Virus record (IMG/VR): IMGVR_UViG_3300023084_000003
Strand: one strand, 5' to 3'
Length of the DNA stretch: 64,000 nucleotides
Source: a virus
In this document: positions 55,151-64,000 of the stretch, in pieces
How the letters are laid out: each line of letters starts with the position of its first letter
Numbering within the stretch: position 1 is the first letter of the stretch
Position numbers and translations under genes: made by a program
The notes under the pieces: generated by a model
What the model was told of the DNA's origin: nothing
Database searches by the model: none
What the model saw: only the letters and a program-made list of their open reading frames with translations

Positions 55151-55525
55151 TTAGGAGATGTCAACTTTTTTTTCAAGAATTGCGTGTGCAATAATGTCCC
55201 CGTTCTTAAGGGCAACTAAACTGTCACATGTATTCTTGACTATCAATTTAATTTCAGAAGTCTCTTCTACAATCTGAACACACGAAGCGAGAACAAGCGA
55301 TTTCTTAAGTGCCCAATCCTCTTTAATATAAATCTTTGCAATGTATCCTTCCGGCACTTCAAGAGTCTGCCCTGTTGGAATAATTGCTCTTACATCTGGA
55401 ATCAACTGTAATGCATCCGCATCTGGACCGAATCCTTTTACATGCATTTTTTGTAGTTTATTCCAATTATTATAAGTATCAACAAAGTCTCCATGCTTTA
55501 AGGAGACGGCAATATCAATCATCAT
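55151..55525 (-). CDS. Degenerate trimeric dUTPase-fold protein (124 aa)
   Basis: RAIIPTGQTLEVPEGY...IKLIVKN...LKNGDIIAH follows the dUTPase scaffold, but the catalytic motifs 2, 3 and 5 are absent. Confidence 0.6.
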   Translation of the reverse strand: MMIDIAVSLKHGDFVDTYNNWNKLQKMHVKGFGPDADALQLIPDVRAIIPTGQTLEVPEGYIAKIYIKEDWALKKSLVLASCVQIVEETSEIKLIVKNTCDSLVALKNGDIIAHAILEKKVDIS

Positions 55526-58497: not shown

Positions 58498-59160
58498 TTA
58501 TCCTTTCTGATAAGTCGACTTAGTATCAATTGCCACGAAGTACGTGACGTCCGTACCCTTGAACTCAGAGATTCCCTTTGCGCAAAGAGAAACTTTGTAA
58601 TCCTGAGGCAAGAGCTTAAGATTATCGGTTTTAATGATAATCTTAAATTCATCAGATGTAGTGCCGATTTCAACACCATAATCATCAGAATTTTGATTGT
58701 TGCTATCAATAGCTTTCAACCAGATTTTCCCTTCGGTCCCTACAAAGGCTACCTCAGAGAATTGTAACACACCTGCAGCCTTAAGAACAGACTGTAGGTC
58801 TTCCCAAGAAACATCAACAACTACATCCAGAGATGGCAGTTGAATCTCTTTTTCGGGAGCTGCATGAATCATTGATATGTCAGCGTAAACATATTTCGTC
58901 TTACGACGACCATCGTTGATCATAAAGTATTTATCATGAAACTCTACGTCGGGATCCTTGTAAAGTGATAAAATTGACAAAAATCTTGACAAATCATAGA
59001 TACATGCTTGAGATGGAATCTGATCTGGAATAGTTGCAGACGCAACCAATGTCTTTTCTGGTGTTACTGTTTTAAGTACACCGCCGGGTTTCATAAGAAT
59101 CGACTTGTTGATAGTCGAAAAACTCTTAAGAATGGTAAGAGTACGTTCACTAAACTTCAT
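58498..59160 (-). CDS. gp45: Sliding clamp gp45 (220 aa)
   Basis: MKFSERTLTILKSFSTINKSIL...IYDLSRFLSILSL...NLKLLPQDYKV...YFVA. Confidence 0.96.
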   Translation of the reverse strand: MKFSERTLTILKSFSTINKSILMKPGGVLKTVTPEKTLVASATIPDQIPSQACIYDLSRFLSILSLYKDPDVEFHDKYFMINDGRRKTKYVYADISMIHAAPEKEIQLPSLDVVVDVSWEDLQSVLKAAGVLQFSEVAFVGTEGKIWLKAIDSNNQNSDDYGVEIGTTSDEFKIIIKTDNLKLLPQDYKVSLCAKGISEFKGTDVTYFVAIDTKSTYQKG

Positions 59161-59186: not shown

Positions 59187-60086
59187 TTATGTATTAATTT
59201 TACTACGTTTTTTGGATTTTGTCAACTGTTTTTTATTGGCATAAGTTTTACGATTGCTTTTACTGTCTGCGGTGGCTGACACACCGAGAGAACCAATAGC
59301 AGCCATATTACCTTTAAAGATATAAGTGCCAATGTGATTGAGGTGCATCCAAGGGCACATAATCACTTTCATACCGATGTCACGGGCTTTCCTACAGAAG
59401 AAGTAATCCTCTGATAGATAACGACGCGATTCCGGATCAATTACACAGTCAAAGAACGCTGTGATATCTCGCGAACCATCAAACTTGTCCGTACGAACAT
59501 GATCTGGTTTGTACTGAAGTTCAGGATAGGCATCGCGATATTTCTCAAGTGTTTCTCGTGGAATACACATAAAGCCTGTACCACCCTCACCAATCTCAAG
59601 TGGTTCACCAACATTAAATGTATCTAATTTCTTAACAGGATTAAATACATAGTCTGCTGTATAGTTATCAAGCTCGAATGGATTTTCGTCACCTTTACCA
59701 AGCTCTGCAGCCTTAGCAACCTTTTCCCACGCGATTGTTTTCTTAGGATAAGGTCCTACAACAATATTATGATTCTCGGTGTCTGCTAGATTTACAGCAA
59801 TTAATCCTAGAACATCTTTAGCATTAAATGCGATGTCTGAATCGATGAATACAAGGTGAGTACAATCAGATCTGAGGAACTCATCTACAACATAATTACG
59901 TGCCCTCTGGATAAGGCTCTCGTTAAAGAGATAATAAAAACGGATAGGAATACCATTTGCTGCACACATCATAGCCAGGTCGTTACAGGACTTAGCATAT
60001 GAGCCTGAGCAGTTACCACCGTACATCGGAGTACCGATAAAGAGCTTCTGCTCTTTGAGTTTGTCTAAAGAGATTTCAATTTTCAT
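59187..60086 (-). CDS. GT-A-fold glycosyltransferase-like protein (299 aa)
   Basis: IGTPMYGG, ESLIQRARN, HLVFIDSDI (DxD), GTGFM, YLSEDYFFC and C-terminal HIG. Confidence 0.65.
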   Translation of the reverse strand: MKIEISLDKLKEQKLFIGTPMYGGNCSGSYAKSCNDLAMMCAANGIPIRFYYLFNESLIQRARNYVVDEFLRSDCTHLVFIDSDIAFNAKDVLGLIAVNLADTENHNIVVGPYPKKTIAWEKVAKAAELGKGDENPFELDNYTADYVFNPVKKLDTFNVGEPLEIGEGGTGFMCIPRETLEKYRDAYPELQYKPDHVRTDKFDGSRDITAFFDCVIDPESRRYLSEDYFFCRKARDIGMKVIMCPWMHLNHIGTYIFKGNMAAIGSLGVSATADSKSNRKTYANKKQLTKSKKRSKINT

Positions 60087-60718
60087 ATTTCTACTTGCTC
60101 CATATCATTTTCTGCTCTATGAATAGCCTGAATCCGAAGGATGTCTGCTGCGACATCATGTCTGCTATCATGAGCACTAAATACTTTTTCCCATTGCTCA
60201 GTATCTGCAACGGGCACGAATCCATTCTTTGTTGTAAAGTTAAACTTCGCATCAATAAATGTACGAGTATCACGTATACGCCAGTAAGGAATGTACTCGT
60301 TTAGAAACTTGTCCTTGCCTACGGCCATTGCCATATGATCTAGAATAACTGGGTCAAAACCGTTTGAACGGCTCCACCAGTAATCAACTTTATCTTGAGT
60401 ACGAAGATATCCGATCATCTGCTCAATAAACTGTGGTAGCTTAAGATCATCTGGCTTTGGTTTTAAAAGCTTACGAACTTCTGGTGCTTGCTGTAGCCAC
60501 CAATCAAGATCTGACTTTTGATATTCAAAGTCATAGTTCTTTATTTGATCTTGCAAATCAAGTTTTGCTTTTTGAATGATACCTAAAAGTTCTTGAAAAG
60601 AATAAGGCTCATCAAGAAAGCGATCCCATACAAATGTTGCATAAGAACACTCAATGCCAGGCGCCTTACGAGCACACTGGCCAATTGTTTCAAAGTCTAG
60701 GATAAAGTCAGTTCTCAT
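60083..60718 (-). CDS. dexA: DEDDh 3'-5' exonuclease, DexA-like (211 aa)
   Basis: ILDFET (Exo I), WSRSNGFDPVIL (Exo II), RDTRTFI and HDSRHDVAAD (Exo III). Confidence 0.8.
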   Translation of the reverse strand: MRTDFILDFETIGQCARKAPGIECSYATFVWDRFLDEPYSFQELLGIIQKAKLDLQDQIKNYDFEYQKSDLDWWLQQAPEVRKLLKPKPDDLKLPQFIEQMIGYLRTQDKVDYWWSRSNGFDPVILDHMAMAVGKDKFLNEYIPYWRIRDTRTFIDAKFNFTTKNGFVPVADTEQWEKVFSAHDSRHDVAADILRIQAIHRAENDMEQVEI

Positions 60719-61923
60719 AGAAAAGCCTCAAGTGTAGTAATGTTTTCTTGGTATTCAAGCTTCTGAGTACCATTATACTGCAAAATGTAATCGGTGTCAA
60801 CCATTTTTCTTAGACCTTTAAGTGTTGCTAGAACCTCTGTGGCCATGTCTGTGGCTGTTTGCACAGGGACATTTTGGCAAATATGATTTGCTACCTTAGG
60901 GCCCGCATCGACCAATTCAAAGTCTTCGGGCAAGCCCATGATTGACATAGCTTCTCGGTAATTAATAAATCGATCTTCATCAGGATGAGTAAGCATAGTA
61001 GGATAGTGGCCAACGAAAGCGCCGATACGATCTTTTGGAACAATGACACCTCTTCTCATAATCGACCCACCCTTAGCAAGTTTCTCATGTTTATAGTGGC
61101 ACTTATCAACTTCTTTCTCAAAACCGTTTGCAGCCATCCAGTCAGCAACTTCATTATAAGTTTTACCTGCTCTTTCGATATAAGAGAAAGAATCCACACC
61201 ACGAGCTGACGTTGGATCTACATCGCGAGAATGCTCTGTATGAGTTTTGCCTCCTTCAATCTCTTCAAGAATGTACTTATAGTACGGGTTGTCGGAAGGC
61301 TTTTTAGTATTGATAGGTTCAGTTTGAAAGTTTGATTTTACATTACGAATTAATTCTTCGATTGGTGTGTACTCACGATTGTAGTATTCAAAGATTGGTA
61401 CGCCGTTATCTCGTTTCCAGAAGAAATAAAATGAGCGTTCTCGTACCTGTGGAACACCATGAAGTAGAGATCTAGTCCGGTATACACTCATCGTATATCC
61501 ATTGTCCTTACCAATCTGTTTCAATTGATTACGAACATTAGTTCCAATCTTACCAGCAAATCCTGGAGCGTTCTCGCCCCAGAAACAGTCTGGTCTATAT
61601 TCACCAAGAATATACTTTGCAGTCTCAATCATCCATTTGTTGTTTTCGTTGTCGTCACCGTATCCATGTGACATCATTGATAAACCAGCGCATGGACACA
61701 CTGATGATACAACATTTGCTCTTTCGCCTGGCGGTGGCCTATGTCCTTTATCTAGAACATAATATGGAATCTTGTTGTCGTAATAATTTAGAATATGTTT
61801 GTCATTACCAGCAAAAGGTTCATATGACATAAAATGAATTGGAGGTGCACCAAAGGCTCGATGGGAACCAATAGTTTCACCTCCAATTAGTGGTACGATA
61901 CTTGCGTGGGTAATATCACTCAT
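60715..61923 (-). CDS. C5-cytosine DNA methyltransferase-family protein with atypical SAM-binding motifs (402 aa)
   Basis: Motif IV PC (VCPCAGLS), motif VI ENA, motif VIII PQVRER and motif IX RFINYREAMSIMGLP. Motif I reads IVPLIGG and motif X reads CQNVPV. Confidence 0.75.
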   Translation of the reverse strand: MSDITHASIVPLIGGETIGSHRAFGAPPIHFMSYEPFAGNDKHILNYYDNKIPYYVLDKGHRPPPGERANVVSSVCPCAGLSMMSHGYGDDNENNKWMIETAKYILGEYRPDCFWGENAPGFAGKIGTNVRNQLKQIGKDNGYTMSVYRTRSLLHGVPQVRERSFYFFWKRDNGVPIFEYYNREYTPIEELIRNVKSNFQTEPINTKKPSDNPYYKYILEEIEGGKTHTEHSRDVDPTSARGVDSFSYIERAGKTYNEVADWMAANGFEKEVDKCHYKHEKLAKGGSIMRRGVIVPKDRIGAFVGHYPTMLTHPDEDRFINYREAMSIMGLPEDFELVDAGPKVANHICQNVPVQTATDMATEVLATLKGLRKMVDTDYILQYNGTQKLEYQENITTLEAFL

Positions 61924-62921
61924 GCTAAAAACTTTCTCACTGTTGAGAGCGCTGTGCTCACAGCCTGATGCATATCAAGATAGGCATACAAACCGCAGCG
62001 ACCGATAAAGGTCATATGCTCTGGTATTTCGGCTTTATATTTTTTGTATAGCTCTCGGTTCTTACCATCGCGATCTTTTACTGGATAATAACGTTCATAG
62101 TTATTCTCAGAGTAATCGCATGGTTCCTCGAACGTTAGCGTTGTGATATATTTATTATCGCCGTGACAGGGAATATTCTTCCATTCAGTAACACGAGTCT
62201 TTGGGCCGTGATGAGTAAAGTTTACAGTAGCGGTTGGTAATGCCCGTGGAATCGGCAGGCTTACAGTCTCAAACTTGATTGAACGATATGGAAGCTTATC
62301 ATATTTCCATTCAAACCATTCATCAATTGGCATAGAATTAAACACATGATCGTATTCTTTATCCATATGATAATTATATTCAGTATTTAAAGATACAGTT
62401 ATATTGTGGTGAGTGAGAATGTTCTCAACCATTTTAGTATAGCCATGCCGTGGCATGAATTGTATCTTATCATTTGGAAAGTATTCTTCGTTGTAATCAT
62501 CACGAATAGGAACTCGATTGATAATATCAGGATTCAACTGATCAAGTTCGACACCCCACATCTTCTTGGTATAAGGTCTGAAGAATACGTCGAGAACATT
62601 CTCCTCACCGACAATATCTTTTGTTTCACGATTTACTGGTAATGTGACGTATTGTCCATCCGAGAGTTGAGCTTTAACTTTGTGCCGATACTCAACCCAC
62701 TCAGTAAACTGTGAAAGCCATTCAAATACTTCTTCATTATTAGTATGAAATAGATGAGGACCATACTTATGAACTCGAATGCCATGTTCATTCTCATAAT
62801 CATATGCATTACCGGCTACGTGATCTCGTTTATCAATTACATCTACATTATGTCCTGCTCTTGCAAGCTCACGAGCAACCACACAACCTGATAGACCCGC
62901 ACCTACTACTAAATACTTCAT
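61920..62921 (-). CDS. glf: UDP-galactopyranose mutase (333 aa)
   Basis: GAGLSG FAD motif, AGNAYD, VHKYGPHLFHTN, LPYRS, TRVTEWK, ERYYP and GRCGLYAYLDMHQ. Confidence 0.95.
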   Translation of the reverse strand: MKYLVVGAGLSGCVVARELARAGHNVDVIDKRDHVAGNAYDYENEHGIRVHKYGPHLFHTNNEEVFEWLSQFTEWVEYRHKVKAQLSDGQYVTLPVNRETKDIVGEENVLDVFFRPYTKKMWGVELDQLNPDIINRVPIRDDYNEEYFPNDKIQFMPRHGYTKMVENILTHHNITVSLNTEYNYHMDKEYDHVFNSMPIDEWFEWKYDKLPYRSIKFETVSLPIPRALPTATVNFTHHGPKTRVTEWKNIPCHGDNKYITTLTFEEPCDYSENNYERYYPVKDRDGKNRELYKKYKAEIPEHMTFIGRCGLYAYLDMHQAVSTALSTVRKFLA

Positions 62922-64000
62922 GCTGCTAATACTCTCTCAAGCTCGTTTCTTTGAATGCTCTGATCCAAAGGATGGTTATCATATAGAGCATCTCGCTGAG
63001 CTTTGGCAGTAGCTTGCAATTGAGTAAGATCCATTGCTTCTACGTCTTGTACTCGAAGTCCAGCAAGACCCTCATCTTTATAATACACCATCATTTCTGG
63101 TTTGTCACCAATAATAATAGAACCGGCGTCAGCAACCTGCAGTGGGCGTGCTCGCCACCACCCAGATCCGGCATGGAAGTATCCGGGCATTAGACAGCCC
63201 CATTGTTGTTCGAATACTTTTACCATTTCCGGTTCGGTTTTACGCTCTGACTTATATTTACCACGCTTTGCGCCATAGTAAACAATCTCCCACTTCCAAT
63301 CGTCAGGTTGCTGCGCCTTGAGCCATTTTCGCGTTTTCTCTTGAACAAGAGACGCAAAATTCCATTTCATTTCTTTTTCTGGTGTATCACCAAAGAAACT
63401 ATCCAAACCAACACTACCTGTTCCATAACCGTTGTCTGCACGACGATTTAGATGATAAGGATTTGGATTATATGTGTAAACGTTTTCTTCTTTCCAGCCA
63501 AGTTCTAGTGTTGACATATCACCACCTGCAAAGGCGCTTACAAGCAAACGATTCTCTTTACTGGTGATAATGTTACAAGCATCGATATATTGTTCTTTAT
63601 ATGACGCTACAGTTTCTTTATCTTCTACACCTTGCCATAGATCAAAGAGATACTGGCGGAATACACCTTCATCGTTTGCTTCGAGCTTCTCTTTATATGT
63701 TTCAATAGTGCTGTAGATCTGTTTAAACTGCCAATCGTCAAAAGCTAAGATGCAGTTTGGGCGAGCATGTACGGCATACAGTCCGGACCATAGGAATTGA
63801 CAGAAGGCCTGGATGCTGTGAATGTATACCACTACCTCATCATAGTGATCTAGGTTCTCGCCTAGTCTGACAGGCCGCTGTTCAACCTCATATCCCATAT
63901 CTTCAAGGCAACGAATGAGTGAATAGTGAGATGGCACAACCTGAAGTTGTTGCTGCAGAAAGAAGTCTTTCGTACACTGCAGCTTATTCATACCTGTTAC
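62918..64000 (-). CDS. GT-B-like glycosyltransferase (resembles T4 beta-glucosyltransferase), probably 5'-truncated by the window edge
   Basis: The frame is open past the track ATG (63991) to the edge (GTA ACA GGT ATG = VTGM). VVPSHYSLIRCLEDMGYEV...HYDEVVVY and WWRARPLQVADAGSIIIGD echo, from memory, the N-terminal and R-x-x-E-type segments of T4 BGT. Confidence 0.5.
   Translation of the reverse strand, partial: VTGMNKLQCTKDFFLQQQLQVVPSHYSLIRCLEDMGYEVEQRPVRLGENLDHYDEVVVYIHSIQAFCQFLWSGLYAVHARPNCILAFDDWQFKQIYSTIETYKEKLEANDEGVFRQYLFDLWQGVEDKETVASYKEQYIDACNIITSKENRLLVSAFAGGDMSTLELGWKEENVYTYNPNPYHLNRRADNGYGTGSVGLDSFFGDTPEKEMKWNFASLVQEKTRKWLKAQQPDDWKWEIVYYGAKRGKYKSERKTEPEMVKVFEQQWGCLMPGYFHAGSGWWRARPLQVADAGSIIIGDKPEMMVYYKDEGLAGLRVQDVEAMDLTQLQATAKAQRDALYDNHPLDQSIQRNELERVLAA

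Follow-up and report, generated by a model that had tools for sequence, protein, structure and literature searches.

Why would a T4-like phage encode an enzyme for a furanose sugar donor beside its replication genes, and to which molecule would the sugar be transferred? The question is raised by positions 59187-64000 of one 64,000-nt stretch of the IMG/VR record IMGVR_UViG_3300023084_000003 (the window, by which we mean the whole stretch). The window derives from a T4-like myovirus and carries late structural genes, followed by the sliding clamp and clamp loader genes. The region of interest holds five minus-strand open reading frames (ORFs), joined at all four junctions by ATGA overlaps, immediately upstream of the gp45 clamp. 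They encode a GT-B-fold glycosyltransferase (GT) resembling the T4 DNA beta-glucosyltransferase (BGT), a uridine diphosphate (UDP)-galactopyranose mutase (Glf), a protein of the C5-cytosine methyltransferase (MTase) family, a DexA-type exonuclease and a GT-A-fold glycosyltransferase. The sequence-only reading of this DNA had proposed that the five genes form a galactofuranosyl DNA hypermodification system; the gene arrangement that it described was recovered in full, and its gene identities were confirmed by Pfam and PHROG matches and by AlphaFold2 (AF2) folds. On its sequence, the end of the window reads as the distal half of an island that would hypermodify cytosine pre-replicatively in an uncultured T4-like myovirus of marine origin, and we consider it probable that the product of the GT-B/Glf cassette in this island is DNA containing galactofuranosyl-5-hydroxymethylcytosine.

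The hydroxymethylase, the mutase and the GT-B protein

No source of 5-hydroxymethylcytosine (5hmC) lies inside the 64-kb window, as the sequence-only reading had stated. The gp42-like hydroxymethylase that was sought, as set beforehand, just past position 64000 was found in contig L001, which aligns to the window with 97.9% identity over 9.9 kb, up to exactly base 64000, and runs 10 kb further. Directly upstream of the GT-B gene, on the same strand and with starts that overlap or abut, L001 encodes a protein of the UDG superfamily (121 aa), a dCMP deaminase, an additional ORF of 79 aa, a protein of the thymidylate synthase (TS) family (231 aa) and a DUF1599 protein (119 aa). The TS-family protein, approximately 1.1 kb past the window end, matches the T4 dCMP hydroxymethylase (1b49) with an E-value of 6.4e-63. 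The catalytic Cys is present, Asp occupies the positions of ThyA N177 (which governs dCMP specificity) and L143, and the Asp corresponding to D169 is kept. The gp42 motifs FICTN and RSND...ND were matched by a motif scan in 24 of the 28 homologues, and they also occur in Erwinia phage FBB1, in Aeromonas phage 25 and in those members of the other two lineages that were aligned.

The D169 position bears on the identity of the modified base. RB69-type TS homologues with Asn at ThyA-D169 make 5-hydroxy-dCMP (Lee et al., NAR 2026, PMC13326640). In all gp42 homologues checked, this position is occupied by Asp (within RSND) and never by Asn, and a reading in which the base is 5-hydroxycytosine (5hoC) was therefore rejected; retention of the Asp predicts 5-hydroxymethylcytosine. 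The alternative route to 5hmC, through an MTase and a TET-type oxidase, had been offered by the sequence-only reading as an analogy with the MTase/TET/GT clusters of other phages. This analogy does not apply: no TET/JBP match (PF12851) was found in genomes G002-G005, and the route was rejected since near-complete relatives are without TET, which leaves the MTase-like protein with no oxidase partner.

The Glf protein matches PF03275 across profile positions 2-203 of 203, and its N-terminus matches the FAD/NAD-binding family PF13450 (1e-20). It aligns over its full length with the D. radiodurans UDP-galactopyranose mutase (3hdq; 3.6e-75), including the LPYRS, YYPV and GR..Y.Y stretches; its helical domain is shorter by about 30 residues. 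Glf adjoins GT-B in every locus with a Glf-type cassette.

The GT-B gene continues past the end of the window. The start codon of the ORF 62918-63991, an ATG at 63991, is internal, and homologues place the start eight codons earlier, giving a full protein of 365 aa. The family comprises 680 members (clusters at 90% identity), all of approximately 365 aa, in which an F-D-D-W-Q motif is invariant. The protein has no Pfam match, and thus none to PF09198 (BGT) or to PF11440, the T4 DNA alpha-glucosyltransferase (AGT) family; a phmmer search of PDB sequences was also empty. The two glycosyltransferases that flank the five-gene region were folded with AF2 using deep alignments. For the GT-B model (pLDDT 93), the best Foldseek match was T4 BGT (E 3e-7), and VIA-align ranked T4 BGT first among 48,161 chains (Z 17.0, rmsd 3.7 over 293 residues), with T4 AGT at Z 15.5 and the DNA GT of phage HY126 at Z 13.3. 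Judged from this model, the protein resembles DNA glycosyltransferases of the BGT and AGT kind at the level of the fold only. A distant sequence relative is encoded by Morganella phage Rgz1, within an RB69-type arabinosylation cluster, and other distant homologues are present in Gordonia phages.

A conserved island frame and its variable cassette

The island was compared across approximately 110 loci, made up of 32 viral loci found with GT-B and 78 more anchored on the MTase-like gene. The frame common to these loci consists of DUF1599, gp42, the dCMP deaminase gene (cd), a variable cassette and the MTase-like gene, usually followed by DexA, GT-A and gp45. Within the 32 GT-B loci, the block DUF1599-gp42-cd-(UDG-like)-GT-B-Glf-MTase is retained down to 45% GT-B identity, and the lineages at 45-77% identity have a GalE-like epimerase gene directly upstream of GT-B. 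Among the 78 MTase-anchored loci, the stretch between cd or the UDG-like gene and the MTase-like gene varies, holding GT-B with Glf, GT-B alone or other genes. One alternative cassette protein (L108 in Table 1) matches the whole PF11440 profile (3.6e-73), and three others match it more weakly; some alternative cassettes also include an epimerase and a UDP-glucose dehydrogenase. Because the slot holds bona fide AGT-family proteins in sister phages and GT-B with Glf here, it is best read as a DNA-sugar cassette. The comparison of loci presents GT-B, with or without Glf, as one putative allele of a hypervariable sugar cassette, of which T4-AGT homologues and Glf-less GT-B proteins are the others.

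A quick IQ-TREE maximum-likelihood tree of the GT-B proteins placed the nine marine Glf-less members in a single clade with 100% support and a long stem. The Glf-less label required 3 changes on this tree, against 10.1 in shuffles, a kind of clustering that relatedness inflates. The long stem fits a switch of sugar donor in this clade. In the lineage of the complete genome G004, proteins similar to UDP-glucose/GDP-mannose dehydrogenases and to cytidylyltransferases are encoded just upstream of gp42 (L025), suggesting that the sugar there is more complex.

Four genomic contexts, independent of one another, link the GT-B/Glf pair to gp42 or to TET/JBP. Among the Straboviridae, Erwinia phage FBB1 and Aeromonas phage 25 carry a Glf-GT-B pair between motA and asiA together with an hmC-type gp42; neither had a match to PF09198 or PF11440, in a search run without a positive control. 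The Kyanoviridae phage C48C1 (L035/L038) has the gene order TET/JBP (PF12851, 3.3e-17), GT-B and Glf, and has no gp42 and no PF00145 gene. The C48C1 dioxygenase may act on thymine, in which case the product would be a galactofuranosyl analogue of base J. At a further locus (L033), GT-B and Glf are directly followed by a gene for a 544-aa fusion of DUF7487 and a Mom-family domain, and there is no gp42 nearby.

The predicted pathway and its rivals

The pathway that we propose would begin with the gp42-type enzyme found in L001, which would convert dCMP to 5-hydroxymethyl-dCMP, to be phosphorylated and polymerised into phage DNA. Glf, a mutase by family and by predicted activity, would contract host UDP-galactopyranose to UDP-galactofuranose (UDP-Galf); sister phages would add their own GalE-like epimerase at this step. 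GT-B, as its fold, slot and co-inheritance suggest, would then attach galactofuranose (Galf) to 5hmC in duplex DNA, through the hydroxymethyl group of the base. Carrying galactofuranosyl-5hmC, the DNA would be protected against restriction and Cas nucleases. The core of the sequence-only reading, namely a DNA acceptor, GT-B acting on 5hmC and Glf supplying UDP-Galf, is strongly supported by context: the gp42 gene beyond position 64000, the AGT homologues in the cassette slot and the four contexts of the pair.

Several points weigh against this pathway. The phage is uncultured and known here from its sequence only, and the hydroxymethylase gene is located in the near-identical contig L001 and not in the window itself. 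The synteny evidence comes mostly from related phages and is thus not fully independent. GT-B folds are generic, and the lead of BGT over glycogen synthase in the structural comparison was just 1.3 Z units. The identity of the sugar as galactofuranose is taken from the family membership of Glf only. Finally, there was no match to PF08761, the T4-type gp56 dCTPase family, and the Aeromonas phage 25 gp56 and gp1 queries found nothing in G003 (91% complete) or G004 (100%), while matching FBB1, the positive control, at 2.5e-58 and 9.9e-41. As no T4-type gp56 or gp1 is detectable in near-complete relatives, the passage of hydroxymethyl-dCMP into DNA is a putative step, and the replacement of cytosine may be partial.

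The same DNA glycosylation could use another furanose made by the mutase, either arabinofuranose from UDP-arabinopyranose or the furanose form of GalNAc, and this is possible, if rather unlikely. In some species, enzymes of the UDP-galactopyranose mutase family also take UDP-arabinopyranose or UDP-GalNAc; against this stands the universal pool of UDP-galactose, for which GalE plus Glf is the classic route. The epimerase beside the cassette in sister phages matches just the generic PF01370 family, distant GT-B relatives are located in arabinosylation clusters, and RB69 and DLP3 have arabinose as their DNA sugar (PMC13326640). However, authentic UDP-galactopyranose mutases match the whole length of the Glf protein, and no enzyme supplying UDP-xylose or UDP-arabinose was found in the 10 kb examined upstream of the cassette in the window's own lineage. 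We regard it as very unlikely that Glf and GT-B glycosylate something other than DNA, such as the Thr-rich fibres, capsid proteins or the host envelope, since authentic T4 AGT-family DNA glucosyltransferases occupy the same slot in sister phages, the pair is tied to gp42 or TET/JBP in its four contexts, and DNA glycosyltransferases are the best structural matches. Such an acceptor would accord with the known phage-encoded glycosyltransferases that decorate virions or O-antigens, with the very large fibre-like proteins encoded in the window, with a distinct tailoring cluster, rich in GT genes, a few kb beyond, and with the distant GT-B homologues of Gordonia phages, whose hosts have Galf-rich walls. 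The promoters argue against it as well. On their sequence, those of the region appear to be of early type: a consensus sigma-70-type promoter lies within the 3' end of the MTase-like gene, approximately 55 nt ahead of dexA, and no TATAAATA late promoter occurs anywhere in 57-64 kb, whereas the structural genes of the window do have TATAAATA promoters.

The sequence-only reading had joined all five genes in one system. In its fullest form, GT-B would add Galf to 5hmC, GT-A would add a second sugar to form a disaccharide, and the MTase-like protein and DexA would belong to the pathway, which we consider unlikely. The ATGA overlaps couple the genes translationally, GT-A follows the island in nearly all marine-clade loci, and di- and trisaccharide DNA bases occur in T2/T6, RL38J1 and RB69 (PMC13326640). 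The GT-A model (299 aa, pLDDT 84) also had GlfT2 among its top Foldseek matches, with STIV A197 (7.9e-7) and ppGalNAc-T2; the D-x-D residues D82 and D84 are invariant, and the protein has no Pfam match and no phmmer match among PDB sequences. GT-A nevertheless shows a double dissociation from the hydroxymethylation genes and the cassette, and was rejected as an obligatory partner. Stenotrophomonas phage DLP_6, with no TS-family gene, and Caulobacter phage Cr30, with canonical ThyA only, encode homologues upstream of gp45, and others occur in pelagiphage podoviruses; conversely, three genomes that have GT-B and Glf, namely the complete 219-kb G004, FBB1 and C48C1, have no GT-A. The GT-A family (>7,800 relatives) is more than 10 times larger than that of GT-B, and GT-A stays constant while the first-sugar cassette varies. 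GT-A is probably a conserved neighbour of gp45 with another acceptor, outside the hmC sugar module. DexA, 30% identical to the DexA of Aeromonas phage 25 (E 7e-19), is missing from its slot in many related loci and, by this distribution, appears to be an ordinary T4 accessory exonuclease and an optional neighbour. The claim that all five genes form one system is thus unsupported, and the proposed galactofuranosyl-5hmC pathway is confined to gp42, Glf and GT-B.

This pathway has much in common with that of glucosyl-5hmC in T-even phages. The gp42 orthologue agrees with the T4 enzyme in its residues for catalysis and specificity, dCMP deaminase and DexA are neighbours, the site is in the replication module near gp45/gp44, the best structural match of GT-B is T4 BGT, and true AGT homologues occupy the slot in sister phages. 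It differs in that the donor would come from a phage Glf, as a furanose, and not be UDP-glucose; in that no similarity of sequence links GT-B to BGT or AGT; in the absence of a detectable T4-type gp56/gp1; and in the constant presence of DUF1599 and a divergent C5-MTase-like protein, in a phage of a marine, uncultured host. A second comparison is with the 5hoC systems of the Rhizobium phage RL38J1 and the Pootjesviridae, and of RB69 and DLP3 (PMC13326640). These also combine a TS-family enzyme that makes a modified dCMP with DNA GT-Bs that add sugars, and the RB69-type arabinosylation cluster contains a distant relative of our GT-B. RL38J1 also has a phage UDP-galactopyranose mutase, proposed to supply UDP-Galf for galactosylated 5-hydroxycytosine (Lee et al., NAR 2026, PMC13326640). 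In contrast to the Asp-retaining gp42 of the island, however, the TS homologues of these phages have the D169N substitution and make 5-hydroxy-dCMP, so that the sugar is ether-linked directly to C5, and the phage families and gene order are different. The remark in the sequence-only reading that it was aware of no described Galf-modified DNA base is updated by the RL38J1 proposal for 5hoC; for Galf on 5hmC, no demonstrated case is known to us.

A third set of relatives is formed by the metaviromic clusters of C5-MT, TET (5mYOX) and GT genes (Burke et al., PNAS 2021, PMC8256090; bioRxiv 10.1101/2023.12.21.572611). There too, GT-A or GT-B enzymes decorate 5hmC, often paired with a sugar epimerase, and C48C1 has a version consisting of TET/JBP, GT-B and Glf. 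In the island, unlike these clusters, gp42 would make 5hmC pre-replicatively, and neither of the two near-complete relatives (91% and 100%) has TET. The metaviromic survey noted many GT-B genes beside ThyS, dCMP deaminase and clamp genes (bioRxiv 10.1101/2023.12.21.572611), and there is no mention of a mutase or a furanose sugar in either paper. Glycosylated 5hmC and GT genes beside ThyS are thus already known, and the new element is Galf on 5hmC as the predicted product.

If the pathway is correct, these phages, an abundant oceanic group with contigs of up to approximately 220 kb, would have a new natural base in their DNA, galactofuranosyl-5hmC. The island would exemplify the modular evolution of DNA camouflage, with a fixed hmC frame and a swappable sugar cassette (Galf, alpha-glucosyl and others), a pattern to be expected from an arms race with modification-dependent (type IV) nucleases. 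DNA glycosyltransferases specific for furanoses would, in addition, be of use as 5hmC-labelling reagents, and the divergent C5-MTase-like frame gene poses an enzymological question.

The MTase-like protein and other features of the locus

The MTase-like protein is encoded in every marine island locus, and not in FBB1, Aeromonas phage 25 or C48C1. A 221-kb contig encodes an identical protein. Its PF00145 match begins only at residue 75. The sequences VCPCAGLS, GENAP, QVRER and QNVPV, corresponding to catalytic motifs IV, VI, VIII and X, do not vary among 27 island members and predominate among 150 cluster representatives. In the family-invariant motif I, PLIGGE, the first Gly of FxGxG is lost, and the Glu of motif II is not conserved. 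The first ~63 positions of the family profile (~70 residues) could not be aligned to any solved C5-MTase, even by profile, and the alignment runs from position 64. A large clade, of at least 150 clusters at 50% identity, is set apart by this signature; among its fused forms there was a single hint, of a fusion to zf-CXXC. The gene is thus a constant one of the frame, and the protein has intact catalytic motifs and a divergent cofactor-binding N-terminus. Phage C5-MT clades with divergent motifs have been reported to show no detectable activity in E. coli (Burke et al., PMC8256090).

Given that near-complete relatives have no detectable T4-type dCTPase, the simplest guess is that the MTase-like protein methylates residual unmodified cytosine. 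We think it distinctly unlikely that it is not an AdoMet methyltransferase but an enzyme acting in the hmC pathway at the DNA level. In that case, it could install or exchange one-carbon or hydroxymethyl groups on residual cytosines, or activate 5hmC for substitution. To our knowledge, such chemistry has so far been seen only as an in vitro side reaction of C5-MTases. The gene always lies between the sugar cassette and the replication genes, in a gp42 island without dCTPase and TET.

DUF1599 is the "nucleotide modification associated domain 1". Its gene is located upstream of gp42 in most loci and directly adjacent to it in the lineage of the window, and is usually preceded by the gene for a 152-aa protein with a D...ExK nuclease-like motif. 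In a profile search, the DUF1599 protein resembled neither Aeromonas phage 25 gp56 nor MazG-like proteins. A dCTPase-like role for it is a guess; it and the 152-aa protein may be counterparts of the dCTPase and of the C-DNA-specific nucleases of T4. A search of the 10 kb upstream in L001 revealed no Walker-A kinase, and one lineage has a Tmk-like kinase just before gp42.

Table 1. Positions of the features of the island, in the window unless a contig or accession is named, with the evidence for each
Feature	Position	Strand	Evidence or remark
BGT-like GT-B, predicted hmC-DNA (galacto)furanosyltransferase	62918..64000	-	Gene truncated by window end; fold match to T4 BGT
UDP-galactopyranose mutase (Glf)	61920..62921	-	PF03275 5.8e-51
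C5-cytosine-MTase-family protein	60715..61923	-	PF00145 1.1e-19
DexA-type DEDD 3'-5' exonuclease	60083..60718	-	phrog_255 6.6e-30, PF16473 1.4e-9
GT-A-fold glycosyltransferase with basic C-terminal tail	59187..60086	-	AF2 model, D-x-D
gp45 sliding clamp (context)	58498..59160	-	phrog_223 5.8e-73, PF09116 8.7e-18
Sigma-70-type promoter TTGACA-17-TATAAT	60772..60800	-	12/12 consensus match
Second strong sigma-70-like site	59197-59225	-	11/12; in 3' end of GT-A gene, just upstream of gp45
Weakly dUTPase-like protein	55151-55525	-	PF00692, E 0.0036
gp42-like dCMP hydroxymethylase	L001:8174-8869		231 aa
DUF1599 protein	L001:7828-8187		119 aa
D...ExK nuclease-like protein	L001:7367-7825		152 aa
UDG-superfamily mini-protein	L001:9615-9980		121 aa
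Separate tailoring cluster	L001:1840-4743		~5-8 kb past window end
Alternative cassette alleles in sister phages	L108:6772-8004, L119:6579-7988, L062:5104-6528, L073:4200-5639, L070:6209-7995		PF11440 proteins, 338-340-aa partners, epimerase + UDP-glucose dehydrogenase
Dehydrogenase-like and cytidylyltransferase-like proteins (G004 lineage)	L025:5005-6975		Just upstream of gp42
TET/JBP-GT-B-Glf of phage C48C1	OQ984149.1 49583-53030		PF12851 3.3e-17
DUF7487 + Mom-family fusion	L033:12014-13648		544 aa

At the nucleotide level, a megablast search against phages gave no match, and blastn gave short matches only, to Cr30, C48C1, phiM12-type phages and FBB1. Near regA, the window encodes a 124-aa protein with a weak dUTPase match, below the curated cut-off, which could be relevant to control of the dCTP/dUTP pool. 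The UDG-superfamily mini-protein, approximately 0-0.4 kb past the window end between dCMP deaminase and GT-B, has weak matches to PF03167 and DUF1643 and carries GINPS and HPSPLN motifs; it is kept in many island loci and could police uracil or 5-hydroxymethyluracil formed by deamination. Further into L001 lies the separate tailoring cluster, with genes for a TauD-family dioxygenase, a nitroreductase-like protein, a methyltransferase and an Asp/Asn-hydroxylase-like protein.

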